In this document: piece after piece, positions 17,209 through 31,130 of the stretch
How positions within the stretch are numbered: the stretch's first letter is position 1
How the letters are laid out: each line of letters begins with the position of its first letter
Source of the DNA: Candidatus Kapaibacterium sp.
Lineage (GTDB): Bacteria > Bacteroidota > Ignavibacteria > Kapaibacteriales > UBA2268
Assembly: GCA_963664875.1 (NCBI GenBank)
Contig: OY761611.1
Coordinates: 2,336,001 to 2,400,000 of the forward strand
Direction of reading: 5' to 3'
DNA: 64,000 nt
Program-made: the position numbers and the translations under genes
Notes under the pieces: generated by a model
What the model was told of the DNA's origin: nothing
The model's input: only the letters and a program-made list of their open reading frames with translations
The model's database searches: none

Positions 17209-18303
17209 CTATATTTTTTTTATTCTTTTTTCTAGTTCGTAAATGCTATACAGCACATCATTTGGCTGGATTGATGAAAGTGAGCCACTTTCTGTGGTTA
17301 GTGTAATGTGTTCGGAGTTATATGGAGTCCATGGCTTTCCGGCAAACTCTCTGCCGGATATTTCATACATACATATTGCAGGTATGTTGCGTGCAGCTGC
17401 TATATGAACTGCTGCAGTATCAGGAGTAAGAATCATATCAGCTGTGCTAATCATACATATCCATTCATGTATTGAAGACGCTGCCGGAGCTATCCTTGCG
17501 TATGTCCGTGCTGATATTGTTTCCAAATCTCTATAATATTCTGAAGTGCCAAAACAGACAACATCAAAATCAGGACGGGAAGCAGCCAATCTTTCAATAA
17601 GATAAATATGATTGCTCTGTCCCCAATATTTATTTGGAGTAGAGCCGGCTAAGTTAATACATAGTCTAAATTTTTCTTTTTTGCCAAGTCTTCCCTCTGC
17701 AAATGCGATATCTTCCTCCGACAAAGGATATGAGAGTTTCAAATCAGAACGCAATGGATTGATATTGAATGGCAGAAGAAGGTTAGCCAATCTGTCAGTG
17801 ATGTGATATTCCTGCTTATCAAGCAAAGGCACAAGGTGCGAATAAACATGTGCATTACTTTTCTCAATACCAAGCGAAAAAGTAGATCCGGATAGTTTGA
17901 CTATCAAAGAAGAAGTCGCGGATGCATTATCATACATATCAATTATTAAGTCATACTTATTATGACGTAATTTCCGTATGAGACTGAAATTTTCTTTGAA
18001 ATTTCTACCATAAACATAGAAATTATCAGCAAATCTTTCGAAAGCCCGTTTTGCACCCTGATTGCGGTGGCTTAACAAAATATCAATCTTTGCCTCAGGT
18101 AGTGCTTCTTTAATTTTTTCTACTATAGGTACTGATACAAGCACATCCCCTATTCTGTCTTGCCTTAGAAGCAGAACCTTTTTAATATTTTTGCCTGTAA
18201 ATACCGCAGTAGGTTCGCTAACTTCCTGCTGAAATGAATGGTAAGAAAGCGCTGAAGTAATCCTGCTACGCAGATAAAGTTCTATTTTTTTGAGTAATGC
18301 CAT
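17209..18303 (-). CDS. Glycosyltransferase family 9 (heptosyltransferase-like)
   Basis: DRIGDVL, YDLIID, TPDTAAVHIAAA. Start set to ATG 18303. Confidence 0.88.
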   Translation of the reverse strand: MALLKKIELYLRSRITSALSYHSFQQEVSEPTAVFTGKNIKKVLLLRQDRIGDVLVSVPIVEKIKEALPEAKIDILLSHRNQGAKRAFERFADNFYVYGRNFKENFSLIRKLRHNKYDLIIDMYDNASATSSLIVKLSGSTFSLGIEKSNAHVYSHLVPLLDKQEYHITDRLANLLLPFNINPLRSDLKLSYPLSEEDIAFAEGRLGKKEKFRLCINLAGSTPNKYWGQSNHIYLIERLAASRPDFDVVCFGTSEYYRDLETISARTYARIAPAASSIHEWICMISTADMILTPDTAAVHIAAARNIPAICMYEISGREFAGKPWTPYNSEHITLTTESGSLSSIQPNDVLYSIYELEKRIKKI

Positions 18304-18612
18304 AGACACAAAAATAAGAAATTGCAATCTCAAATCTTAGTACAAATTAGGCTTTGCTAAAGATTAGTTGTGGCTTAACACAATAGAAGAAATTGAAATC
18401 TTGTCAATATTTCGTATCAAATGATTGTACAAAATTAAAGATTTTCATCCTATATATAATATAATTATATTCAATTTACGATTGTATGGTATATTTGTAA
18501 CTAATATCATACTTAAGTGTTTTACAAATATAATTTCAAATTACGAATTACAAATTTTGGTGAGAGCCTGAAAGGCTCAAAGTAATAGTGTATTGTAGCA
18601 AAGTATAAAAAT

Positions 18613-18822
18613 TTCCCCTCTTGAGGGGTGCGTGAGCGAAGCGAGGGCGGGGTGGAAACAAACGAAGCACAAAGCCAAACAACATAAAAAATATAAATTA
18701 AATAGATAATCTTAGCGATAATATTTTCGGGGTAGTGATAAGATAAGGTTCTTATCCACCCCGTCTCACCTTCGGTGAGCCACCCTACTTCGGCAGGCTC
18801 AGCACATCGCTCAAGAGGGGAA
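18613..18822. repeat. ~210-bp REPIN/MITE-like element, copy 1
   Basis: Terminal IR ttcccctcttga/tcaagaggggaa, inner IR cggggtgga/tccaccccg, AT-rich ~100-bp interior. Confidence 0.85.
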
Positions 18823-18872
18823 TAATTAGGATTTTGAGTGAAAAACAAAATACACATATGGAAATTTACAAC

Positions 18873-20735
18873 ATGAAACAACTTATACTATTACTTTTAA
18901 TCGTGCCTGCGCTGCTTAGTGCCGAACTCTATGAAGGATCTGACTCATTAAAGCCAAAAAAGGAATATACATATAAAGCAAAAGGTGGTTTAGATATAGA
19001 CCCTAATCTGCTTAATGACGAAGTTCCTGATGACCCTCGTATTCGTTTTGCTACTTATTTTGGTGGAAGTGCAGCTGATGCAGTGCAAGATTTCAAGATT
19101 GATTCTAAGGGATATTTGTATGCTATTGGTAATACCTTTAGTAATGACTTTCCAATGGTTGGAAATTCCTTTGATTCTGAAAAAACTGAAGAAGATTATA
19201 TTGATGCTTTTATTGTCAAATTTGACACATTAGGCTTTCCTGTTTGGAGTACATACTTTGGTGGAACAGGAGAAGACAGAGGTACTAGATTAGAAATTGA
19301 TTCAGATGATAACATAATTATTGCAGGAGCTACTAATTCCCCAAATTTCCCATTAAAATGTGAATTTGATCAAGACAGTATAAAAGGCGAGGCAGATATG
19401 TATGTTGCTAAGTTTGATCAGAATGGCAATTTACTATGGTCAAGGTTGTTTGGCGGAACATATTTAGATCAGGCTTTTGGACTTGCCGTAGATGATGATG
19501 ATAATGTTTATTTGGCAGGTAACACTATGAGTACTGACATTGTAAGAAGTGATTGGACTTACCAACCTGAGTTTAGCCTGTTTTTAGATAAATGGCGAGA
19601 ATATTCAGATGGCGTATTTGCCAAATTTAGTCCTGAAGGTAAACATATATGGTCGAGCTACTTGGGTGCACAACGTGTCGAACATTTAGAAGACATTGAT
19701 GTTTATGGGGATGAGATAGCTATAGTTGGACGTTTAAATGCTCCCATTACAAAGACACATGAAAATATGTATCTCATAGGTACTGAAGATGCTATTCAGA
19801 AACTACCATGTGATACTATGCTGTACGAACATTACACACTTTTCGATCCATTTATTGCCAAATTTACAACTGACAGCTGTAAACTTAAATATTTTACTTA
19901 CTACTGTTCTCAAACTATAAAAAAAGAATTATCCGATAATAGATATTATTTCTCTGATTATGATTCCAAAGGAAATTATATTTTAATTATTGACACAGAA
20001 AATAATTCCATGGAGGTAAAAGGTTCTCCATTTCAAGATTATAGTCCTAATACTAACTACCCCGGCATGATGATGTTATCTCTTAGTCCCCAAAATACTG
20101 TCAATTGGGATTGGGATATCACAGCTGGTGAAAATTTCTCAGATAATGCATACACTATAGATAATCAAATATTATGGGGTGAAGTAACTACAGATAAAAA
20201 TTTGTTTCCCGAAGACAGTAATCATATTGCAAACAGAGACAATGGTTCTACCCGTACTTCTTTGTTAATGAGATTTGATTTAGAAAACTATTCTCAATGG
20301 TATTCTTACCATCCTCACTTCGATGCGGAAAATAGAATTGTTTGTAAAAATAATGATTTATACATGGTGTCCAAATCTCATCCATCACACTTACTCAAAA
20401 ATGCTTATTCTGAAGAATTCCATGAGTATGGCTTATATCTAATCAATTTTGATATGAGAGAGGATTTCGGATACTCTGCTATAGATACAGGAAGAAATGA
20501 TTTATCAAACATATATGTTTATCCATCAATAGCAACTCAATCTATAACTATATCTTCTGAAGATTCCATTAGACAACTACAAATCTATGATTTACTCGGC
20601 AAGCAATTATATTATAAAGAAATACAAATACCATTCCCATTAAACGAGTTAGAAATTAACATAGAGAACTATGCAGACGGGATGTATTTCATTCTTGTAA
20701 ACAATAATTACAGTCTTAAATTTATTAAGGAGTAA
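18873..20735 (+). CDS. SBBP (beta-propeller) repeat protein with T9SS CTD, paralog 1
   Basis: Signal peptide MKQLILLLL; repeats WSTYFGG..D, VYLAGNT.S.D, DAFIVKF; C-terminal IYDLLGK..GMYFI..KFIKE. Confidence 0.85.
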   Translation: MKQLILLLLIVPALLSAELYEGSDSLKPKKEYTYKAKGGLDIDPNLLNDEVPDDPRIRFATYFGGSAADAVQDFKIDSKGYLYAIGNTFSNDFPMVGNSFDSEKTEEDYIDAFIVKFDTLGFPVWSTYFGGTGEDRGTRLEIDSDDNIIIAGATNSPNFPLKCEFDQDSIKGEADMYVAKFDQNGNLLWSRLFGGTYLDQAFGLAVDDDDNVYLAGNTMSTDIVRSDWTYQPEFSLFLDKWREYSDGVFAKFSPEGKHIWSSYLGAQRVEHLEDIDVYGDEIAIVGRLNAPITKTHENMYLIGTEDAIQKLPCDTMLYEHYTLFDPFIAKFTTDSCKLKYFTYYCSQTIKKELSDNRYYFSDYDSKGNYILIIDTENNSMEVKGSPFQDYSPNTNYPGMMMLSLSPQNTVNWDWDITAGENFSDNAYTIDNQILWGEVTTDKNLFPEDSNHIANRDNGSTRTSLLMRFDLENYSQWYSYHPHFDAENRIVCKNNDLYMVSKSHPSHLLKNAYSEEFHEYGLYLINFDMREDFGYSAIDTGRNDLSNIYVYPSIATQSITISSEDSIRQLQIYDLLGKQLYYKEIQIPFPLNELEINIENYADGMYFILVNNNYSLKFIKE

Positions 20736-20738
20736 AAT

Positions 20739-20948
20739 TTCCCCTCTTGAGGGGTGCGTGAGCGAAGCGAGGGCGGGGTGGAAACAAACGAAGCACAAAG
20801 CCAAACAACATAAAAAATATAAATTAAATAGATAATCTTAGCGATAATATTTTCGGGGTAGTGATAAGATAAGGTTCTTATCCACCCCGTCTCACCTTCG
20901 GTGAGCCACCCTACTTCGGCAGGCTCAGCACATCGCTCAAGAGGGGAA
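20739..20948. repeat. ~210-bp REPIN/MITE-like element, copy 2
   Basis: Appears identical to 18613-18822 at an offset of 2126 bp. Confidence 0.85.
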
Positions 20949-20998
20949 TAATTAGGATTTTGAGTGAAAAACAAAATACACATATGGAAATTTACAAC

Positions 20999-22855
20999 AT
21001 GAAACAACTTATACTATTACTTTTAATCGTGCCTGCGCTGCTTAGTGCCGAACTCTATGAAGGATCTGACTCATTAAAGCCAAAAAAGGAATATACATAT
21101 AAAGCAAAAGGTGGTTTAGATATAGACCCTAATCTGCTTAATGACGAAGTTCCTGATGACCCTCGTATTCGTTTTGCTACTTATTTTGGTGGAAGTGCGG
21201 CTGATGCAGTGCAGGATTTCAAGATTGATTCTAAGGGTTATTTGTATGCTATTGGTAATACCTTTAGTAATGACTTTCCAATGGTTGGAAATTCCTTTGA
21301 CTCTGAAAAAACTGAAGAAGATTATATTGATGCTTTTATTGTCAAATTTGACACATTAGGTTTTCCTGTTTGGAGTACATACTTTGGTGGAAGAGGAGAA
21401 GACAGAGGTACTAGATTAGAAATAGATTCAGAAGATAACATAATTATTTCAGGAGCTACTAATTCCCCAAATTTCCCATTAAAAGGGGAATTTGACCAAG
21501 ACAGTATAAAAGGCGAAGCAGATATGTATGTCGCTAAGTTTGATCAGGACGGCAATCTTCTATGGTCAAGGTTATTTGGCGGAACATATTTAGATCAGGC
21601 TTTTGGTCTTGCCATAGATGCTGATGATAATATATATCTTGCCGGTAATACTATGAGTACTGATATAGTCAGAAGTGACTGGACTTATCAGCCTGAGTTC
21701 AGCTTGTTTATTGGTAAATGGCGAGACTTCTCTGATGGAGTATTTGCCAAATTTAGTCCGGAAGGTAAACATATATGGTCGAGCTACTTGGGTGCGCAAC
21801 GTGTCGAACATTTAGAAGACATTGATGTTTATGGGGATGAGATAGCTATAGTTGGACGTTTAAGTGCTCCTATTACAAAGACTCATGAAAATATGTATAT
21901 AATAGGAACTGAAGATGCTATTCAAAAATTCCCATGTGATACTATGCTGTACGAACATTACACACTTTACGATCCATTTATTGCCAAATTTACAACTGAC
22001 AACTGTAAACTTAAGTATTTTACTTACTACTGTTCGGAAGCCAGGCGTGCAAATTTAAGTGATAATTATTATTTTTTCTCAGATTATGATGCAGACGGAA
22101 ATTTTATTTTAATTATTGACACTGACGACAATTCTATGCAAGTCAAAGGTTCTCCGTTTCATAATTATAATGAAATTGGAGGGCATTTTGGCAGGATGAT
22201 TCTGTCTTTAAATTTAGAAAATAAAGTTAATTGGGATTATGATATGATGGGAGGCTTAGGCTTTTTTGATAATTCATATGTTCTGGATAATAAAGTTTTG
22301 TGGGGAGAAGTCAATGCTGAAAAAAACATATTTCCTGAAGATAGCAATCATATCATTAATCGAGATCACGGAACTACTCGAACATCATTATTGATGCGAT
22401 ATGATTTAGAAAATTATAAACAATGGTACTCTTACCACCCTCACTTAATCGCAGACCCAAATCTTCTAGTTAAAAACAATGATGTTTATATTGTTTCTAA
22501 AGCACATTCAGCACACTTACTAAAAAATGCTTATTCTGAAGAATTCCATGAGTATGGTTTATATCTAATTAATTTTGATTTGAGAGAGAACTTTGGGTAT
22601 TCGGCAATAGATACAGGAAGAAATGATTTATCAAACATATCTGTCTATCCATCAATTGCATCTCAATCCATAACTATATCTTCTGAAGATTCCATTAGAC
22701 AACTACAAATCTATGATTTACTCGGTAAACAATTATATTCAAAAGAAATACAAATTCCCTTAAACGAGTTAGAAATTAACATAGAGAACTATGCAGACGG
22801 GATGTATTTCATTCTTGTAAACAATAATTACAGTCTTAAATTTATTAAGGAGTAA
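20999..22855 (+). CDS. SBBP repeat protein with T9SS CTD, paralog 2 (tandem duplicate)
   Basis: Near-identical N- and C-termini to paralog 1, with a diverged middle. Confidence 0.85.
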   Translation: MKQLILLLLIVPALLSAELYEGSDSLKPKKEYTYKAKGGLDIDPNLLNDEVPDDPRIRFATYFGGSAADAVQDFKIDSKGYLYAIGNTFSNDFPMVGNSFDSEKTEEDYIDAFIVKFDTLGFPVWSTYFGGRGEDRGTRLEIDSEDNIIISGATNSPNFPLKGEFDQDSIKGEADMYVAKFDQDGNLLWSRLFGGTYLDQAFGLAIDADDNIYLAGNTMSTDIVRSDWTYQPEFSLFIGKWRDFSDGVFAKFSPEGKHIWSSYLGAQRVEHLEDIDVYGDEIAIVGRLSAPITKTHENMYIIGTEDAIQKFPCDTMLYEHYTLYDPFIAKFTTDNCKLKYFTYYCSEARRANLSDNYYFFSDYDADGNFILIIDTDDNSMQVKGSPFHNYNEIGGHFGRMILSLNLENKVNWDYDMMGGLGFFDNSYVLDNKVLWGEVNAEKNIFPEDSNHIINRDHGTTRTSLLMRYDLENYKQWYSYHPHLIADPNLLVKNNDVYIVSKAHSAHLLKNAYSEEFHEYGLYLINFDLRENFGYSAIDTGRNDLSNISVYPSIASQSITISSEDSIRQLQIYDLLGKQLYSKEIQIPLNELEINIENYADGMYFILVNNNYSLKFIKE

Positions 22856-22858
22856 AAA

Positions 22859-23067
22859 TTCCCCTCTTGAGGGGTGGCATGCGTAGCATGACGGGGTGGA
22901 AAAGAATCTTATTTCTATCACTACTCTAAAAAATATATCGCTAAAGTTATTTATTTAGAAAACATACTGCATACTCTGAAAATTTGTGCTTCGTGTGTTT
23001 CCACCCCGTCTCACCTTCGGTGAGCCACCCTACTTCGGCAGGCTCAGCACATCGCTCAAGAGGGGAA
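22859..23067. repeat. ~210-bp element, copy 3 (interior inverted)
   Basis: Same terminal IRs and same right arm; interior matches the reverse complement of copies 1 and 2. Confidence 0.8.
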
Positions 23068-23100
23068 TGGAGAGGGTTTTGGCTCAAAATATTAGAGAAA

Positions 23101-23225
23101 GAGCCTGAAAGGCTCAAAGCAAATAGCCCGGGGCAGCTAAGGTCACTGAGCGAGCGCAGCAAGTCGAAGTGCGGGAAAAGAAACGCCCACACCCTCGTTT
23201 TCCATAACCGAGCGGAGCGAGGTGA
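23101..23225. repeat. Pile of REP-like hairpins from different families
   Basis: gagcctgaaaggctc (also at ~18564, similar at 41670); aggtcactgagcgagcgcagcaagtcgaagtg at 23140-23171 (reverse-complement copy of array repeat A); accgagcggagcgaggt. Confidence 0.65.
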
Positions 23226-23321
23226 AGTATTTTCTTCTTTCTAAGTACAAGAATCAAAAAAATGTTTACATCTCTTAAATATTTTACTCTATCACTTAAA
23301 ATAAGGACTTATAGCGAGGGG

Positions 23322-23660
23322 TGTGGATTACCCGGATTGTATAATTATAGCTTATACATAGACTTATAATGCTTGCCGGAAATTATCAAATAATTGTCCA
23401 CAACTTTGATACAGAGCTGTTTTAAGAGGTGTTAGAAATTTGGAAAATATTGTGGATAACTTAGATTTTTGTCAACATCTCAAATTATTCCACTCCGAGT
23501 GTTGAAAACTATAAGTTATCCACACATTTATCCACAATACTTGATTATTAAAATTCCTTTACAATTTCCGATATTTCAAATACTTAGCTTTCCGAATTTT
23601 GGCTTTTCAACTTTTCTACACTAAGTACATATACATCATATTTATAAAAGAAAAAAAAGA
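23322..23660. promoter_or_regulatory. Probable oriC (DnaA-box cluster)
   Basis: Perfect TTATCCACA at 23516-23524 and 23528-23536; TGTGGATAA at 23451-23459; 1-mismatch boxes at 23322-23330 and 23394-23402; adjacent AT-rich tract; parS-like cluster within 5 kb. Confidence 0.75.
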
Positions 23661-23671
23661 ACTCTATGTTA

Positions 23672-24931
23672 TTATATTGTATCGAAGCCTGTATATCTTT
23701 GCAAGCACTCAGGTACTTTTACTGTTCCGTCTTCCTGTAGGTAAGTTTCGATTAGAGCAGCAAAAATTCTTGAAGTAGCTAATGCAGATCCGTTTAATGT
23801 ATGTACAAATTCCGGTTTAGCGTTAGGTTCTCTTTTGAATCTGATGTTTGCTCTTCTTGCCTGGAAGTCTTCAAAATTGGAACAGCTTGATACTTCTAAC
23901 CATTTTTCTTCGCCCGGAGCCCAAACTTCTAAATCGAATGTAGAAGCTGAAGAGAAACTTGTGTCACCTGAGCAAAGGTGAAGCAATCTATATTGTAATC
24001 CTAAGGCTTGTAAAAGGTCCTCAGCGTCTTTTATTAGGTTTTCCAACTCTGAGTATGACTCTTCCGGTTTAGTGAATTTGACAAGCTCTACTTTGTTGAA
24101 CTGGTGAACTCTAAGGAAACCGTGTACTTCTTTGCCATAGCTGCCTGCTTCTCTTCTGAAACAAGGAGAATAGCCGCATATTTTTATAGGAAGTTCTTCT
24201 CTGATAATTTCGTTGTTGTAGTAATTAGTAAGCGGAACTTCTGCAGTTGGGATAAGGTACATATTATCTTCTGTTGCATGGTACATATCTTCAGCCATTT
24301 TAGGAAGCTGACCTGTGCCACGCATAGAGCTTTCGTTTACAAGGAAAGGAGGCATCATTTCGTAGTATCCGTGTTTTTCCAAGTGAGTATTGAGGAAGAA
24401 ATTGATAAGAGCTCTTTCCAAAGCAGCACCTTTACCGGTATAAAAAGCAAAGCCTGCACCTGAAACTTTTGCACCTCTTTCGAAGTCAATAATTTTGCGG
24501 TCTTTAGCTATTTCGATATGGTCTTTTTTAACAGGCTGAGTAACTCTTTCGCCCCATTCTTTTACTACTTTGTTATCAGCTTCAGATTTTCCTATAGGTA
24601 CATCTTTGTGGCACATATTAGGAACTTTGCTCATAAGCTCAGCAATCTGATTTTCTACATCGCGAAGTTCGTCGTCCATATCTTTGATTTTATCAGAAAC
24701 ATCTTTCATTTCAGCGATTTTGTCGTCAGCATTTTCTTTATTTTTTTTAAGCTCGGCAATTTCTTTAGAAGCAACATTACGTTGATTTTTAAGATTTTCA
24801 ACTTCTGCTATTATAGTTCTTCTCTTTTCATCAAGCTGAGGAAGAGCAGTAACATCAGCAGATTCGTTTTTGTTTTTGATATTTTGTTGTACCAAATCAA
24901 TATTTTCGCGTACAAATTTCAAATCCAACAT
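23672..24931 (-). CDS. serS: Seryl-tRNA synthetase
   Basis: MLDLKFVREN, LIPTAEVP, FRREAGS, HQFNKVE, HTLNGS. Confidence 0.98.
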   Translation of the reverse strand: MLDLKFVRENIDLVQQNIKNKNESADVTALPQLDEKRRTIIAEVENLKNQRNVASKEIAELKKNKENADDKIAEMKDVSDKIKDMDDELRDVENQIAELMSKVPNMCHKDVPIGKSEADNKVVKEWGERVTQPVKKDHIEIAKDRKIIDFERGAKVSGAGFAFYTGKGAALERALINFFLNTHLEKHGYYEMMPPFLVNESSMRGTGQLPKMAEDMYHATEDNMYLIPTAEVPLTNYYNNEIIREELPIKICGYSPCFRREAGSYGKEVHGFLRVHQFNKVELVKFTKPEESYSELENLIKDAEDLLQALGLQYRLLHLCSGDTSFSSASTFDLEVWAPGEEKWLEVSSCSNFEDFQARRANIRFKREPNAKPEFVHTLNGSALATSRIFAALIETYLQEDGTVKVPECLQRYTGFDTI

Positions 24932-25096
24932 ATCGAAATCCTATTGTTTAGTGTATTAAATATAGTCTTTTTGATTCTACACGAAATTAGTTAATAATTG
25001 CTAAACCAAATAATTAAATTGTTGAGTAGATAGGTATATATTTAAAAGGATATATAGTGAGTGAAATGAGGTGGTAGGAAGAATATTCTTTTACAT

Positions 25097-25165
25097 CACT
25101 TCAGTTTACTGAGTTTGCTGAGTGAGATTAACAAGTTCATCGAGCGAGCAAAGGGAGTCGAGATG
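25097..25165. repeat. Degenerate A/B doublet of the GIY-YIG-associated repeat
   Basis: agttcatcgagcgagcaaagggagtcgagatg (25134-25165, B type) preceded by a decayed A copy. Confidence 0.65.
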
Positions 25166-25550
25166 TAGAAATTATTCTGATTTCCATATCCACTTGTCGT
25201 ATCTATTTACATAACCCCAGAATGTTTTACAATCACTGGTTGAGGTTATAATACATATCATGAGCTTCATATATTCCGTTTTATATCTCTTTTAGATATA
25301 GAAAATCTTTTTCAACAATTTGGCATCTACCTATATCGTAAATTATCAGAGTTTTTGAATTATTGTTATTATAGTTTTTGAATGGATTAGGTTTTGATTT
25401 ACAATTTTTAGAGATATATTTCTTTTTATACTTCCTATTACCGTTACTGTCAAGTACTACATTTTCACTATTTTGGAGTATCTTGATTCCATCTTTATAG
25501 GCAGATTTCCAGAAGTATGCTCAAAATCTATTATCTATAAAATTTAAATA

Positions 25551-26036
25551 TCATTCTTCAAACCCTCGATTATTTATTTTATATAATTTTTTAATTACAG
25601 ATATGGCTTTGCTACTTCTTTCTTCATCTAAGACATTTCTAAATATTTCAAATATTCTATCAGAATAGTCTTCAAAAGATATTCTAAAGAACAAATCAAT
25701 ATATTGTCCCTTCAAAATAGTTAAAGAAAATAGATTTCTTTTTGCTATATCTCTATTTAACGAATATTTAGTTCCACCTAATTTACTTAAACTATCTAAA
25801 AGTTTTTCTTTTTCGTCAATACTAATATCAATTCGATCATAAACGCTAAACCATTCAGATTGAAATGAAAATCCTATCGGTGATAATAACAAAGCAGGAT
25901 AATACCCACTTGCAGAGTCCCGATCTCTAATAATTATTACCAAATGCTCTCTATACAAATATATTGAAGAATTTTGATTATATAAATTTGTACAAAGTAG
26001 CAATACAAATACAGAATATTTAACTATTTTAAACAT
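25551..26036 (-). CDS. Hypothetical exported protein, possible immunity protein
   Basis: Very AT-rich ORF with N-terminal hydrophobic segment; starts about 10 bp after the stop of a toxin-tip-like fragment. Confidence 0.45.
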   Translation of the reverse strand: MFKIVKYSVFVLLLCTNLYNQNSSIYLYREHLVIIIRDRDSASGYYPALLLSPIGFSFQSEWFSVYDRIDISIDEKEKLLDSLSKLGGTKYSLNRDIAKRNLFSLTILKGQYIDLFFRISFEDYSDRIFEIFRNVLDEERSSKAISVIKKLYKINNRGFEE

Positions 26037-26045
26037 AATCTATCC

Positions 26046-26276
26046 TTAAGGTTTTCCGACAACTTGTGGTACATTAGATATCCACCTAATTTGACCTAAA
26101 TGGAATGGTACACTTTCTGGTGTTACTACAGTAGGTCCTATATAATTTATATTACGATTAGTATCAGTTGTATATCCCCATTGTACAGTCTTTAAGACGT
26201 CATGATTTTTAAATCCAATACTGTCCTCGCGAATACCAACAAGACTTGTTGTTGCAATAAAATCTTTATTTGCAAT
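26046..26276 (-). pseudogene. Start-less 76-aa C-terminal fragment resembling an RHS/polymorphic toxin tip
   Basis: Open frame IANKDFIATTSLVGIR...LKTVQWGYTTDTNRN...VVGKP*, with no start codon. The family assignment is inference. Confidence 0.35.
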
Positions 26277-26875
26277 TTATAGAAACCATACGAATTTTTA
26301 CAATCAAATAATGCAATATCATGGTTTATGTGATCTAATAGAAAAGGGAATTTCATGTCCTTACAAAAATCTTCATATAAAAGATCAAAATATCCATATT
26401 CAATAGGCAATATTGTATTCGTATTTATATCTACTAAACAATTTTTTTTATTTTTAGTATCAGATTCTTTTATTGTCACCACATAAACATCATCTTTCCA
26501 GTATAAATAAGCATCATAGCCAATATTATATATCTTCTTTTCTTTTGGTCTCAATACATACTGATAATCTGCTGAGTAATCGGTGCCATTGAATCTTATA
26601 GTATCAAAGCCTCTATTAAATACTAATCTACCGGTATTATCAATAATAAACTGCTTCCCTTTATAAGTAACAATACCAAATTCTTTATCAAACTGAGTAG
26701 CTTTATCAAATCTATAATCTACAATAAGCTTTCCATACTGATTTATATATCCCCAGCTTCCGTTATTCTCCACAGGCAATAGAATATTTTCAGGGATAGA
26801 ATAATGCAGCGGTTTATCGCAACTAGTAACTAAAAGTACAAAAATTATAATAATTAGAGAGCGCACTAAACGCAT
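26192..26875 (-). pseudogene. WG-repeat lipoprotein, probably truncated
   Basis: MRLVRSLIII..LLVTSC lipobox; NGSWGYINQYGKLIV..FD.A..F repeat; the tail after ~26280 reads through the unrelated fragment out of frame. Confidence 0.6.
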
Positions 26876-26939
26876 AAAAACCTCACTTTCGAAACACTCC
26901 ATATAAAATAGCAGATATTTTAAAAGAAAACAAAAGCTT

Positions 26940-26955
26940 TGTTTCATGTGAAACA
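26940..26955. promoter_or_regulatory. parS-like site 1
   Basis: TGTTTCATGTGAAACA, 1 mismatch to canonical TGTTTCACGTGAAACA. Confidence 0.8.
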
Positions 26956-27265
26956 AAAAAAGTACTTAGTGGTTTGCACTTCGACTCACTGAGATTGGGA
27001 TAATGTGCTACAATAATATTTAAGGTCATCGAGCGAGTACAATGAGTCGAGATGCAATACAGTCACTTTTACACTTCGACTCACTGCGTTCGCTCAGTGA
27101 CCTTAGTAAATAAGTACAATTATAAAATAAAAAGGACATCGAGCGACCAGAGGGAGTCGAGATGCAATACACCTTCTTCTTTCACATCGATTCATTTTAG
27201 TCACTCAGTGACCTTAAAGAATATAAGATATAAAATAAATAGAATTTAGATTTAAAACAGATAAG

Positions 27266-27281
27266 TGTTTCATGTGGAACA
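27266..27281. promoter_or_regulatory. parS-like site 2
   Basis: TGTTTCATGTGGAACA. Confidence 0.8.
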
Positions 27282-27601
27282 ATCTTTGTGAAGAGGTTGT
27301 GGCTTACACTTCGACTCACTATGTTCGCTCAGTGACCTTAAGAATAGACCAGATAATTCAAAAAGGTCATCGAGCGATTGGAGGGAGTCGAGATGTATGA
27401 CTTTTATTTTTACACTTCGACTCACTACCTTCGCTCAGTGAGCTTCGGGTATTTTTCTGTATTATAATATAGGTCATCGAGCGACCAGAGGGAGTCGAGA
27501 TGAAGAACTATCCTTTCTACACTTCGACTCACTGCGTTCGCTCAGTGAGCTTGAACAAATAAGGTATATAATATATGATAATAAGATTCAAAATAGATAA
27601 A

Positions 27602-27617
27602 TGTATCATGTGAAACA
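27602..27617. promoter_or_regulatory. parS-like site 3
   Basis: TGTATCATGTGAAACA. Confidence 0.65.
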
Positions 27618-27788
27618 GTCTTTGTATAAGAGCTTTTAGCTTACACTTCGACTCACTGCGTTCGCTCAGTGACCTATGTGTAAATATGTACGAATAATAC
27701 ATAAGGTCATCGAGCGACCAGAGGGAGTCGTGATGCAAAATTCATATCAATATCAAAATCGAACAATATCAGATATCTAAACACGTAC

Positions 27789-27804
27789 TGTTTCATGTGG
27801 AACA
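27789..27804. promoter_or_regulatory. parS-like site 4 (immediately upstream of the GIY-YIG start)
   Basis: TGTTTCATGTGGAACA. Confidence 0.8.
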
Positions 27805-27810
27805 AAATAG

Positions 27811-28113
27811 ATGCTTATGGCAAAAGCTTATACATATATCCTACTTTGTTGTGATGGTACTTATTACACAGGCAGTACTAAAGATTTGCATTTAAGAATG
27901 GTAGAACATTATTCCGGCGAAGGAGCAAATTATACATCGAAACGCCTCCCTGTTAAACTTATCTATGTAGAAGAATTCGATAGAATAGATCACGCCTTTG
28001 AAAGAGAAAAGCAAATACAAGGCTGGTCACACCGCAAAAAGAAAGCCCTCATAGAACGCAACTATGATAACTTAAAGAAATACTCCAAATCTTATCAGAT
28101 GTTAGAGAAGTAG
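27811..28113 (+). CDS. Stand-alone GIY-YIG endonuclease (YhbQ/UPF0213-like)
   Basis: YTYIL.C.DGTYYTGST.DL..R...H..G.GANYT..RLPVKLIYVE......A..REKQI.GW...KK.ALI. The start may be ATG 27817. Confidence 0.92.
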   Translation: MLMAKAYTYILLCCDGTYYTGSTKDLHLRMVEHYSGEGANYTSKRLPVKLIYVEEFDRIDHAFEREKQIQGWSHRKKKALIERNYDNLKKYSKSYQMLEK

Positions 28114-28120
28114 GTAGTGA

Positions 28121-28535
28121 CACTTCGACTCGCTGCGTTCGCTCAGTGACCTTAAAAAAGATATGCCGTGCTAATTCAAAAAGGTCATCGAGCGAGTGAA
28201 ACGAGTCGAGATGCAGAACAATTCCAATATGCACTTCGACTCACTGCGTTCGCTCAGTGAGCTTGAGATATTGTGTTGCAATAGTATTGAAGGTCATCGA
28301 GCGACCAGAGGGAGTCGAGATGTTGGACTGTAACATTTACACTTCGACTCACTGCGTTCACTCAGTGACATTGAGATATTTCTCTATTTTAGTATAAAGG
28401 GTCATCGAGCGAGTGAAACGAGTCGAGATGCAGAACAATTCCATTAAACACTTCGACTCACTACGTTCGCTCAGTGAGCTTATCTATAGAAAAATAATTA
28501 GAAAGGTCATCGAGCGAGTGTAACGAGTCGAGATG
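28121..28535. repeat. Downstream half of the A/B array (4 regular A-B units, period 108-111 bp)
   Basis: A at 28121, 28232, 28340, 28449; B at 28182, 28291, 28399, 28504. Confidence 0.95.
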
Positions 28536-28561
28536 CAAAATACAAATATCAAAACTCGTAT

Positions 28562-28577
28562 TGTTCCATGTGGAACA
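28562..28577. promoter_or_regulatory. parS-like site 5
   Basis: TGTTCCATGTGGAACA. Confidence 0.8.
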
Positions 28578-28583
28578 ATAGTA

Positions 28584-28937
28584 CTAGTAGCTCTCCCCTT
28601 TGTTTTCCAGTTCTATTCTTTTTATTTCGATTGCTTTAAGTTTTTTAGCCACTGCGGTTCCGAGTTGTATATTTCTTGCATTGCAGTAGTTCATAAGGGC
28701 TATAAATACATCGGCAGCTTCATCTTCGAACCTACTGTGTTCTATAGTTTTGCCTTTCCATTGTTTCTTTTCTATGTTAGCAAGTTCTCCTGCTTCTCCG
28801 TTTAGTTCAAGGCAGAAAAATTCGGGGCTTTTTGGTGTGAAATGTTTGTTTTGATACTTATCAAATTCTTCTTGTATTTGATTTATAGGCTCTTCGCAGT
28901 AATGAAGGAGTATAGGCATATCTATGTATTCAGACAT
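28584..28937 (-). CDS. MazG-like nucleotide pyrophosphohydrolase
   Basis: ExxE...ExxD motif: LNGEAGELAN...EDEAADVF. Confidence 0.75.
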   Translation of the reverse strand: MSEYIDMPILLHYCEEPINQIQEEFDKYQNKHFTPKSPEFFCLELNGEAGELANIEKKQWKGKTIEHSRFEDEAADVFIALMNYCNARNIQLGTAVAKKLKAIEIKRIELENKGESY

Positions 28938-28940
28938 TTT

Positions 28941-31130
28941 TTATTCCTCAAAATCTTTAAAATAAGTTCTAATTTTTCCTATTAGTAAATCTACAGCGTT
29001 GTTTTTTGCAGTCTTTTTACTATTCCCGGTCTGGGTAACTGATGCGGTAAAATCTTTGATTATTATTTCTGCTGTGCATTCGAATTCAGGTTCAGGAACT
29101 GATGAGATTTCTTTGAAAGTATAGATAGGCATGCGAGTGTCGAAATATTGGCAGATTAAGGATATTGCATTTGATTGCAAACCTTCTTCAATAAGTTTCC
29201 TGATTGCGTCGAGTCTATTATCTACTTTGGATACTGCGAAGTCTTGTAAATGGAGAAAAGCCATTTTAGCTGCCTTCTGTTTTGCAGTTTTCTTATTTTT
29301 CCCATTACCGTAAAATTCTAATACTTCTTCTTTATACTTTAATTCAAGTTTACATTTAAAACTTGTATTATTTTCCGGAAGAGGTTCTATGTAATAGCCA
29401 AGAAGTTTAATATCATTATTCTGCATGGTTAGTGTATTTATTAGACTTACCGAGTCTTCTATTGTAGATTCTTGAATATTTGAATGCTCAATGGTTTGAT
29501 CCTTATGTTGTGTATTCTCTTCTGTCTCTATATAATTTGTAGTGGGTTTTTCTGCTTCAATACAATTATTCTTAATAAAATCTACAAGTACTGCAGCACG
29601 CGAACTATTTATAGCTTCTTTTTTATTAGTGTTTGAAATTTTCAAAGTTGTAGTGTAGTATTTGTTGTCTGAAGTTTTGATATAAGTTCTGTTGTGAAAT
29701 ATATCTCCTTTTTTCTCAGTTTCCTCTTCTATTTCTGAAATCAAATTTTGTGACTGCATTAGATAAAGTATCTGTGAGCCTATACTTGGAATCTTAAGTA
29801 TATTATCGAGTATTGCATCTCTTATATCCGGTTCTGATTCTAACCAGTCAGATTCAAAAATAATATAATAAATTTCGATTGCAGTTATAGACATTGAATT
29901 TAGTCTATTTAGTATCTCTGTTTTTATTATTGGTTTTATCGCAGCTGAAGATCTCAGGTTTTTCAGGATGTTTTTAAAATCTCGTACTTCCATTTCAGAA
30001 AGCGCGTTGCTATTGATATTGATGAGACTTGCACTAATTTCTTGGTTGAAAATCTTTTTGAAATGTTCAGTCTTTTTTTCTCTTTCCTTTTCAAAAAAGT
30101 CATTTACAAAATTGCAATAATCTTCAATTTGTTCTATTGTAAATGGTATTGGTGAACCTGTTATGTGACTTCTGATAATAGTATGATTCAATAAATCAGG
30201 GAATCGTCTAATTGGCGAAGTAACATGTGCATAAGCCGGTAGGTTCAGAGCATAATGCCCTTTCAGTTTCGTTTCGTAAATAGCTCTGTTTTGCCATATA
30301 GACATTCTACTTATAAAAGTTGATAAGGTTGAAGGGTTGTTTATGGCGGTAAGCAGTTGATTGTGTACTTCTTCCCTGTCCGGAATATTTGATTTTACAG
30401 TATGATTTCTATATACAAACGGAATATCTTTCTCAGCAAAGTATCTTGCTGTTTCGGAATTAGTAAGTACCATCATTTCTTGAATAATCATATAGGCAAT
30501 TGCTACTTTTTTATTAGCAAATATCTTTACATTTCCTTCTTCATCTGTATATAAGCCCTTGTCTGGGTCAAAATATGAGAGTGCTCCCATTTGCTTTCTC
30601 TTATTGCTCAGTTTAATAGCAAGTTCGTAAGCATTTAAAAGCATTTTTTTGATTTCGGAATGATTTGTTTGATCAGTTAGAATATCCACTACATTTTCAT
30701 AAGTAAGTTTTGCGAGGCTCTTAATCTTCCTTTCTGAAATACTAAAGTCAACTACATCCAAAGAATCATCTAATTCGATATGGAAATTTATTGCAGGACG
30801 TTTAAATCCTTCTTTTAGACTCAATAATCGGAATGATAAAAAATTTGGCAGCATAGGAAGCGAAGATTCTTTTAAGTAAATTGTAGTTACAAGTTGAGAA
30901 GCATTTTCAAAGACAGGCGAATCAGCTTCTATATAAGCAGATGTGTCTGCAATTGCGATATCACAGATATACATATTATCTCTTTTTTCTACCCAAATAG
31001 TATCATCCATATCCTTTGTTTCAGCAGAGTCTATACTCAGACCATTAACTGATTCTCTGGATTTGAGATTTATATCTTTATTTTTTAAATTTTCTGCGTA
31101 CTCTATACATCTACCGGTAAATCTTGACAT
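28941..31130 (-). CDS. RNB-domain (RNase II/R family) ribonuclease with C-terminal dsRNA-binding motifs
   Basis: SIDSAETKDMDD, IAIAD, HYAL, YAHVTSPIRRFPDL; C-terminal GKNKKTAKQKAA and GNSKKTAKNNA dsRBD signatures. Confidence 0.85.
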   Translation of the reverse strand: MSRFTGRCIEYAENLKNKDINLKSRESVNGLSIDSAETKDMDDTIWVEKRDNMYICDIAIADTSAYIEADSPVFENASQLVTTIYLKESSLPMLPNFLSFRLLSLKEGFKRPAINFHIELDDSLDVVDFSISERKIKSLAKLTYENVVDILTDQTNHSEIKKMLLNAYELAIKLSNKRKQMGALSYFDPDKGLYTDEEGNVKIFANKKVAIAYMIIQEMMVLTNSETARYFAEKDIPFVYRNHTVKSNIPDREEVHNQLLTAINNPSTLSTFISRMSIWQNRAIYETKLKGHYALNLPAYAHVTSPIRRFPDLLNHTIIRSHITGSPIPFTIEQIEDYCNFVNDFFEKEREKKTEHFKKIFNQEISASLININSNALSEMEVRDFKNILKNLRSSAAIKPIIKTEILNRLNSMSITAIEIYYIIFESDWLESEPDIRDAILDNILKIPSIGSQILYLMQSQNLISEIEEETEKKGDIFHNRTYIKTSDNKYYTTTLKISNTNKKEAINSSRAAVLVDFIKNNCIEAEKPTTNYIETEENTQHKDQTIEHSNIQESTIEDSVSLINTLTMQNNDIKLLGYYIEPLPENNTSFKCKLELKYKEEVLEFYGNGKNKKTAKQKAAKMAFLHLQDFAVSKVDNRLDAIRKLIEEGLQSNAISLICQYFDTRMPIYTFKEISSVPEPEFECTAEIIIKDFTASVTQTGNSKKTAKNNAVDLLIGKIRTYFKDFEE

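Follow-up and report, generated by a model that had tools for sequence, protein, structure and literature searches.

The 64,000-nucleotide stretch analysed here (the window) is part of the 3.83-Mb single-contig genome of Candidatus Kapaibacterium sp. (G000:C1:2336001-2400000; G000 denotes the window genome and G001-G004 four other genomes of the genus). It contains a small GIY-YIG nuclease gene embedded in an array of 32-bp hairpin repeats, and interspersed with these repeats are 16-bp palindromes that resemble parS, the site of chromosomal ParABS centromeres (Table 1). The predicted protein consists of the GIY-YIG domain alone (PF01541, E 1.8e-16, Pfam scan) and retains the catalytic-type residues Y9, Y19-T-G21, R29, H33 and E66, which bears out an earlier model-made reading of the letters (the sequence-only reading) that had described a protein of about 100 aa with Y/YTG/R/E positions. 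It is the only single-domain GIY-YIG protein found genome-wide, the other two PF01541 matches lying in open reading frames (ORFs) of 578 and 639 aa, and no family matched it in an NCBIfam search. As that reading had also stated, cas, HUH/RAYT, DDE and recombinase families are absent from the window, at least from the 37 of 42 ORFs of ≥130 aa that were scanned with Pfam, the other five being four antisense overlaps and a paralogue of a scanned gene. A single-sequence AlphaFold model of the nuclease was poor (pLDDT 67), and a Foldseek search with it gave no match at E ≤0.001 (best 1zg2, 1ywl and Slx1); neither is used as evidence here.

The array comprises ten full A repeats, one truncated A and nine B repeats, so that the earlier count of 11 A and 9 B stands with the truncation noted. 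The gaps of 23-29 nt from A to B (30 nt for the truncated A) and of 17-18 nt from B to A, and the start of the first downstream A 7 nt past the nuclease stop codon, are likewise as first described. The regular A-B-A alternation is interrupted by the parS-like palindromes, which had been overlooked, and B is not approximately the reverse complement of A, as had been proposed, but a second variant with the outer stem changed on both sides. On the GGTCA-reading strand A and B are one element, N4-GAGCGA-N7-GAGYCGA-N4', with outer stems CACT/AGTG in A and CATC/GATG in B (genus relatives add CGTT/AACG and CCCT/AGGG); they are thus two stem variants of one hairpin in alternating orientation. The solo and decayed copies that the sequence-only reading had placed at 23140 and 25097-25165 (about 25134) were found again.

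Table 1. Features of the nuclease locus and its surroundings (positions within the window)
Feature	Position	Strand	Remarks
Predicted oriC: three DnaA boxes, inverted arrangement	23451-23536		beside the serS 3' end; context, outside the element
Solo A-type hairpin	23140-23171	+	belongs to the 27 long-form copies not at the nuclease
Decayed A plus B-type copy	25097-25165		upstream of serS
parS-like palindrome 1 (CATGTG core)	26940-26955		left array border
Upstream array	26977-27735		32-bp repeats; truncated A at 26977
Upstream B copies	27023, 27133, 27364, 27471, 27704	+ (hairpin strand)
Upstream A copies	27072, 27183, 27307, 27413, 27520, 27644	- (hairpin strand)
parS-like palindrome 2	27266-27281		inside the upstream array, 25 nt ahead of an A repeat
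parS-like palindrome 3	27602-27617		one mismatch to the pattern; 26 nt ahead of an A repeat
parS-like palindrome 4	27789-27804		ends 6 nt before the nuclease ATG, 12 nt before the second ATG
GIY-YIG nuclease ORF	27811-28113	+	100 aa; alternative start ATG at 27817
Downstream array, (A-B)x4	28121-28535		A at 28121, 28232, 28340, 28449
Downstream B copies	28182, 28291, 28399, 28504
parS-like palindrome 5	28562-28577		right array border

The stem of the repeat covaries. Among 365 distinct elements from 94 homologue loci, selected by their fixed core and counted without correction for kinship, the four outer-stem positions pair at 0.87/0.82/0.80/0.77, vs 0.64/0.49/0.32/0.35 with shuffled partners and 0.07-0.35 when the partners are slid. 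The inner pairs form in 40 and 41 of 47 distinct N7 types, a level reached by none of 1000 shuffles, and 41 of the 47 loop types read R-N-A. Both tandem GA pairs and GNA triloops form stable structures in single-stranded DNA (ssDNA). The element can be drawn, as a prediction from these letters, with a 4-bp variable stem, a tandem GA mismatch and two G-C pairs around a bulged pyrimidine, followed by a second tandem GA, a 2-bp stem and an R-N-A triloop; we infer that the GA pairing and this fold would form in the single strand. Adjacent A-B pairs fold into long hairpins (ViennaRNA as DNA, z -2.8 and -2.4).

The long form of the repeat (GAGCGA-N5-9-GAGYCGA) has 44 exact matches in the genome and the reversed control none, so the repeat is not a product of chance. 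The genome-wide count proposed in the sequence-only reading gave 43 exact N7 copies, 16 of them within 2 kb of the nuclease, and a further 42 short-form matches; all 29 dispersed long copies examined are intergenic. Each of the five genus genomes carries 38-67 long-form copies together with the nuclease, compared with 0-6, the control level, in 56 other relatives. Contigs of two sequencing runs (X1 and X3, from which the assembly may itself derive) cover the array piecewise, none spanning it, and agree with it in every letter among the matches listed. No RNA run was among those listed, and wastewater runs with a small share were left out of account as to habitat. A contig of a third run, X6 (depth 4.9), has parS and repeat units in another order before the same neighbour gene, a weak hint at array variation. 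A direct-repeat version of the array occurs at a homologue locus (L070), where 11 short-form hairpins stand head to tail behind the gene, one every 23-24 nt. The strings GTCGAC and GTATAC are nearly absent from the window genome (observed/expected 0.06 and 0.05), suggesting a GTMKAC restriction system; the repeat core, with GTCGAA or GTCGAG, differs from GTCGAC by one base.

Four of the five palindromes in the array lie within two mismatches of the strict chromosomal parS consensus TGTTNCACGTGAAACA (PMC7022226), and they make up four of the six such sites in the genome. The fifth fits the degenerate parS pattern exactly; with up to one mismatch to that pattern, five of six genome sites are in this array. 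The composite array is conserved across the genus, including two GTDB homologue loci with the same build (L001 and L002 of 80), which were counted with it. Not one of the 26 exact pattern sites in the five genomes (4, 8, 5, 4 and 5) lies outside the repeat arrays of the nuclease locus; two belong to a second array, on the far side of a umuC-type gene. In six of six genus nuclease copies, including both tandem copies of G004, a parS-like site ends 5-12 nt before the start codon. The sites of the main array all read CATGTG on the nuclease strand, and many stand 25-35 nt ahead of a repeat; this single orientation and the near-constant distance to the next repeat indicate that they were copied from one site along with the repeat units. 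Between genomes the site cores are 0.95 identical and their 16-nt flanks 0.31-0.33, and such conserved cores amid drifting flanks point to selection on the sites.

The core is non-canonical throughout, and no canonical (CACGTG) parS site was found anywhere in the five genus genomes. CATGTG/CACATG sites are also part of parS clusters in other lineages (L014, L257, L263 and G227). Avoidance of a restriction target was considered as a cause of the CATGTG core and rejected, CACGTG being just mildly low (observed/expected 0.77). In G001 the parS-repeat array contains an insertion sequence of the IS21 type (IstA, IstB; L248:4693-6727), and the parS-flank segments to either side of it are near-identical. 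In G001-G004 (L245-L248) the array has as its neighbour a gene for a umuC-type Y-family polymerase, with parS about 65-85 nt before the start of that gene; the corresponding gene of G000 is 287 kb from the array.

The chromosomal context of the sites is consistent with a centromere. The predicted origin of replication (oriC) is 3.4 kb from the array and 485 kb from dnaA; oriC need not lie at dnaA, and parS calls with two mismatches allowed have been made before (PMC10197239). DnaA boxes linked to serS also occur in L245, L250 and L256; two of the fetched parS loci of other genera have such boxes next to serS, and so has G003. The GC-skew maximum is at 474,670, and the point opposite to it on the chromosome (its antipode) is 26 kb away from the array. 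Because the GC-skew trough is flat, oriC remains a prediction only; a scan for dif sites was too loose to place the terminus. The genome has intact parA-parB and smc, all of them distant from the array, and the genus ParB keeps the equivalents of R173/G201/R204, residues defined as conferring parS specificity (PMC7383237). The number of parS-pattern sites is 4-8 per genus genome vs 0-3 in 56 relatives outside it, and 0-5 in a phylum sample of 300. In other genera, 14 of 16 parS loci, which were picked from listed places and not randomly, have their sites beside mnmG, with CACGTG cores and without an array. In G000, mnmG, mnmE and rmlD are scattered 450-600 kb off, no parS site of ≤2 mismatches was found within 50 kb of mnmG, and serS with its three DnaA boxes lies 2-3.4 kb from the array. 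A FAD oxidoreductase gene still borders the array in G001-G004, and in other genera this gene neighbours the mnmE-parS-mnmG block.

The locus thus resembles a chromosomal ParABS centromere in its clustered 16-bp palindromes near the predicted oriC, its parA-parB and smc genes and the parS-type residues of ParB. It differs in the CATGTG core, in the one shared orientation of the sites, in their being repeated units of a mobile-type array instead of sites flanking mnmG, and in the distance of 1.3 Mb to parAB. On balance the palindromes very probably constitute the working centromere, judging from their conservation and surroundings. Some observations on the same chromosomes are set down here in their own right. 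Against relatives, gene order in G000 looks heavily scrambled: genes adjacent in G003 or in other genera are hundreds of kb from one another, and this holds even inside the genus. Substitutions in the N-terminal CTP-binding domain, immediately preceding the ENVQR motif, are shared by the genus ParB proteins (L088, L372, L375, L386 and L388); examples are M to S at residue 122 and E to Q at residue 124 of the G000 ORF. Of 25 other relatives nearly all lack them. In three genomes (G001:C16:894086, G002:C1:128820 and G004:C1:985634) parB has a solo long-form repeat about 1.7-1.9 kb upstream of it, which was not seen in G000.

The sequence-only reading had proposed the nuclease as the cognate enzyme of the repeat family and had suggested comparing the flanks of its homologues with those of YhbQ/YazA-type genes, and this comparison supports the proposal. 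Among the best 80 of 558 GTDB homologue loci, a loose version of the motif occurs within 1 kb of the gene in 52, in 27 of them on both sides; the 80 loci hold 144 matches vs 4.5 in shuffles, and 27 were counted in 273 kb of more distant flank. The SRM pattern, the repeat of the Ssn nucleases discussed below, has no match at these 80 loci. In a tree of 168 distinct proteins, with the motif counted within 500 nt, it is present near the nuclease in 87 of the 139 members of the group to which the window protein belongs (both sides in 49), near none of the seven proteins on the YhbQ/YazA side and near one of the 22 on the Ssn side, six of which have SRMs instead. The gene is patchily distributed among relatives and occurs in tandem in G004.

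Ssn proteins, as described by Chenal et al. 2025 (PMC11893778), are cd10448 nucleases with a GIY-YIG domain only, and hairpin repeats flank their genes. They cut only an oriented single strand, not double-stranded DNA or RNA, and their layout was compared with that of repetitive extragenic palindromes (REPs), their bacterial interspersed mosaic elements (BIMEs) and the associated RAYT transposases (PMC11893778). Mutating Y6, Y17 or E64 of SsnA abolished cutting (PMC11893778); from spacing and alignment with Ssn-type proteins, Y9, Y19 and E66 of the window nuclease are the probable equivalents. The likeness to Ssn extends to a single-domain protein of about 100 aa (<150 aa) with intact Y/Y/E, oriented hairpins on both sides of the gene and also dispersed genome-wide, a GTCA-like 5' tag and a common C-terminal pattern resembling REKxxKxW...K..LI. 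In contrast to Ssn, the window protein falls outside the clade of SRM-flanked proteins, here standing for the SsnA homologues/GIY-YIG_unchar_3, and its repeat is an imperfect GA-rich hairpin without SRM match (none in the window array and none at the 139 group members).

For the position in the tree, the references were six NTS-flanked proteins from viral contigs (IMG/VR loci; not SsnA itself) and six YhbQ/YazA-type proteins. The Ssn side forms a long branch (FastTree 0.997, SH-aLRT 100), and the housekeeping side likewise stands on a long branch (SH-aLRT 100). In approximately unbiased (AU) tests on 65 proteins and 101 columns (LG+G4, 2000 replicates, quick constrained searches), grouping the genus proteins with the Ssn references was rejected (p 0.006), as was grouping them with YhbQ/YazA (p 0.002); the whole repeat-flanked group as one clade gave p 0.067. 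By its sequence, then, the nuclease is placed in an Slx1-like/UPF0213-like group between YhbQ/YazA and Ssn and in neither clade. Its closest solved relatives are the UPF0213 proteins 1zg2 (E 1.6e-13) and 1ywl (E 1.4e-11). UPF0213 proteins have been classed as prokaryotic Slx1-like (PMC1564403), and in the peer-review file of PMC11893778 its authors call Slx1-like proteins the sister of Ssn. The UPF0213/YhbQ/YazA proteins share the same minimal domain, and the nearest solved structures by sequence are theirs, but they are the products of operon-bound housekeeping genes without repeats and form a separate clade. We class the system as an Ssn-type nuclease-hairpin variant, fused specifically in this genus to what is predicted to be the chromosomal centromere. 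On the Ssn side of the tree stands another group of small GIY-YIG proteins (L344, L345, L347, L349, L350 and L351), separate and well supported, whose members occur several times per genome within one family of the phylum sample; it has neither SRM nor window repeat and may have a third repeat type.

In two unrelated Bacteroidales (L014 and L031) the nuclease-hairpin element is found at parS sites just downstream of mnmG, every exact parS site of each genome being at the element locus, and in L031 repeats and nuclease directly follow mnmG-parS-parS; by a rough count of windows, which is weak evidence, about 0.2-0.3 such cases were expected. A third candidate (L010) was dropped, since its palindrome has two mismatches and is not that genome's exact site.

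Taken together, the observations are probably best accounted for by an Ssn-like element that settled at the centromere and whose array expansion multiplied parS as a selected passenger. The element would consist of a minimal GIY-YIG nuclease and its own family of REP-type hairpins. The enzyme would bind the hairpin in ssDNA and cut beside it, as SsnA does; we consider hairpin-specific ssDNA cleavage likely, by analogy with SsnA. As a result of cutting, the repeats would recombine, amplify and disperse more readily. The element would have come to lie at the parS locus of the chromosome, near oriC, in the ancestor of the genus; there, duplications of array units may have copied one CATGTG-variant parS along with the hairpins, and array expansion is presumed to have caused the multiplication of the sites. 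The old neighbours mnmE, mnmG and rmlD would have left through genome rearrangements such as those seen in G000. The array would now hold the only good parS candidates of the chromosome, kept, as their conservation suggests, by selection for ParB loading. The parS sites themselves would be selected passengers that the nuclease does not need.

Several findings weigh against this scenario. The sites lack an intact CACGTG core, every genus site being CATGTG/CACATG, and an intact core was important for the ParB of Pseudomonas aeruginosa (PMC4368675); no co-evolved change in the helix-turn-helix of the genus ParB was seen among 30 ParB sequences compared. The formal GC-skew minimum is at 2,096,560, 266 kb from the array, in a flat trough reaching to about 2.42 Mb, and dnaA and parAB are far from the array. 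No loose motif was found within 500 nt of the gene in 52 of the 139 group members; single repeats fold no better than shuffles (ViennaRNA, z -1.7 to +1.0), and the covariation counts carry the limits given with them. Related hairpins are present near two Y1 genes (one short form at L087, two bulge-less forms at L086). The five genus genomes are one lineage and so represent one event. Outside the genus, parS is found at two of 134 group members (locus DNA, mean 6.8 kb) and at none of the 60 loci of about ±5 kb from relatives and the phylum sample, and a metagenome scan for parS next to a repeat tail gave at least 116 loci, one with a stem repeat and, among the matches listed, none with the nuclease. 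On these three counts general targeting of parS by the nuclease group is largely rejected, and the nuclease-parS association is not general.

A tighter relation between the two parts is conceivable, in which the parS just ahead of the start codon, when bound by ParB, throttles the nuclease, cuts by the nuclease at hairpins that origin replication exposes renew and expand the parS cluster, and host and element each depend on the other. The site just ahead of every genus nuclease copy, tandem copies included, fits this, as do the retention of the nuclease in all five genus genomes when it is patchy elsewhere, the two independent landings at parS (L014 and L031), and the repression by ParB of genes adjoining parS3/parS4 in P. 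aeruginosa (PMC7022226). In relatives, however, parS also occurs a few to 60 nt before the starts of mnmG, mnmE or rmlD, and a position at a start codon need therefore not mean regulation; most homologues lack parS, and the five related genomes count once. We regard such coupling as rather unlikely. We also asked whether the palindromes could be operators, structural parts of the element or decayed parS, the true centromere being elsewhere or different. This would be in keeping with the CATGTG core at all sites, with the P. aeruginosa data favouring CACGTG (PMC4368675), and with the absence of the exact variant strings from the literature searched. It appears improbable, given that parAB is intact and yet no canonical site exists in the five genomes, that CATGTG/CACATG belongs to parS clusters elsewhere (L014, L257, L263 and G227), and that the sites adjoin the predicted oriC; moreover, their absence from 132 of 134 other homologue loci means that they are not a general part of the element.

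The repeats might instead belong to a RAYT (HUH) transposase acting in trans, with the GIY-YIG gene merely marking a hot spot of REP insertion. The sequence-only reading had likened the layout to REP/BIME/REPIN clusters; the resemblance, alternating inverted heterodimers of short palindromes around a nuclease gene with dispersed copies between genes, holds, but its view that such clusters normally go with an HUH RAYT is outdated now that a GIY-YIG with its own hairpins has been published as Ssn/SRM, and the enzyme here is GIY-YIG, not HUH. Four Y1_Tnp genes are encoded in the genome and related GA-rich hairpins lie near two of them, yet none of the four is in the window, they are accompanied by other repeats, and none has a long-form copy within 2 kb, so that a RAYT flanked by the same repeat, which would have spoken against the proposal, was not found; 16 of the 43 long copies are at the nuclease, and the repeat family tracks the nuclease group over many lineages. 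A RAYT in trans is accordingly a quite improbable source of the repeats. At one of these genes (L086, G000:C1:2424028-2427369), a Y1/RAYT gene is flanked by its own repeats and by a bulge-less relative of the GA hairpin (GAGC-RNA-RCGA), which suggests shared or mosaic REP modules. That an ordinary repair nuclease of the YhbQ/YazA type has come by chance to lie in a REP cluster is very improbable: UPF0213 1zg2 and 1ywl are the nearest solved relatives and the N-terminal half has a YazA-like GxGA-Y-T motif, but the housekeeping clade is separate (SH-aLRT 100; AU p 0.002), free of repeats and confined to fixed operons, whereas the window gene is patchy and duplicates. Finally, transcription of the array might yield structured RNAs that act as partners of the nuclease, as the sequence-only reading had suggested, or as its guides, the variable guide sequences being supplied by the spacers. 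The regular repeat-spacer period and the long A-B hairpins are what such an array might display; however, the repeats alternate in orientation, the spacers are AT-rich and in part duplicated, no cas gene is among the window ORFs scanned, an Rfam search over 18000-29000 gave three weak matches far below the gathering score, which were rejected, sigma-70 promoter-like sites are at chance level (7 vs 6.0), SsnA ignores RNA (PMC11893778), and a 100-aa domain leaves little room for a guide. The idea finds no support and is hardly tenable.

Returning to the scenario of an Ssn-like element with parS as passenger, a bolder version holds that a selfish nuclease-hairpin element was domesticated as a bacterial centromere, its array carrying and multiplying all parS sites and parS-bound ParB restraining the nuclease. 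We think this rather unlikely. If true, the element could not be lost without losing the centromere, and the locus would be a bacterial counterpart of eukaryotic centromeres built of repeats and mobile elements. It would represent a new route by which a mobile element secures vertical inheritance, of which the Bacteroidales landings beside parS (L014 and L031) would be earlier stages.

The parS units, which the sequence-only reading had missed, are the unusual part of the locus. Bacterial centromeres usually are a few parS sites between housekeeping genes; here they resemble unit repeats in an array of mobile type, one subject to expansion, rearrangement and the uptake of insertion sequences. 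Questions that thereby become testable are how parS clusters originate, relocate and vary in number, whether copy number compensates for the CATGTG variant, and whether holding the centromere enables a mobile element to persist. The nuclease group in turn provides a second, large set of candidate site-specific ssDNA nucleases outside the defined Ssn family, with a different hairpin; as natural variants already map the variable and fixed positions of that hairpin, specificity is testable with few oligonucleotides. In the literature searched, from which subscription journals were mostly missing, we found no paper joining GIY-YIG, REP and Bacteroid, nor one joining parS, REP, centromere and ParB. 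Searches for parS in the supplement of the Ssn paper matched only inside other words, and the sections of that paper available do not mention it (PMC11893778). CGTC-tagged REPs have been described in Bacteroidetes and Chlorobi (Di Nocera et al. 2013, PMC3733652); the string GTCGA is absent from the main text of that paper, the consensus figures of which may include the window repeat.

The neighbourhood of the array has further features of its own. To the right (28941-31130) follow a gene for an RNB-domain exoribonuclease with C-terminal double-stranded RNA-binding motifs and a 117-aa gene without Pfam match, which we presume from its look to be MazG-like. To the left, two tandem, near-identical beta-propeller genes with type IX secretion tails (18834-20735 and 20960-22855) are each preceded by an identical composite palindromic element, and this element recurs at about 23000, where it adjoins a RAYT-type repeat and the solo A repeat.

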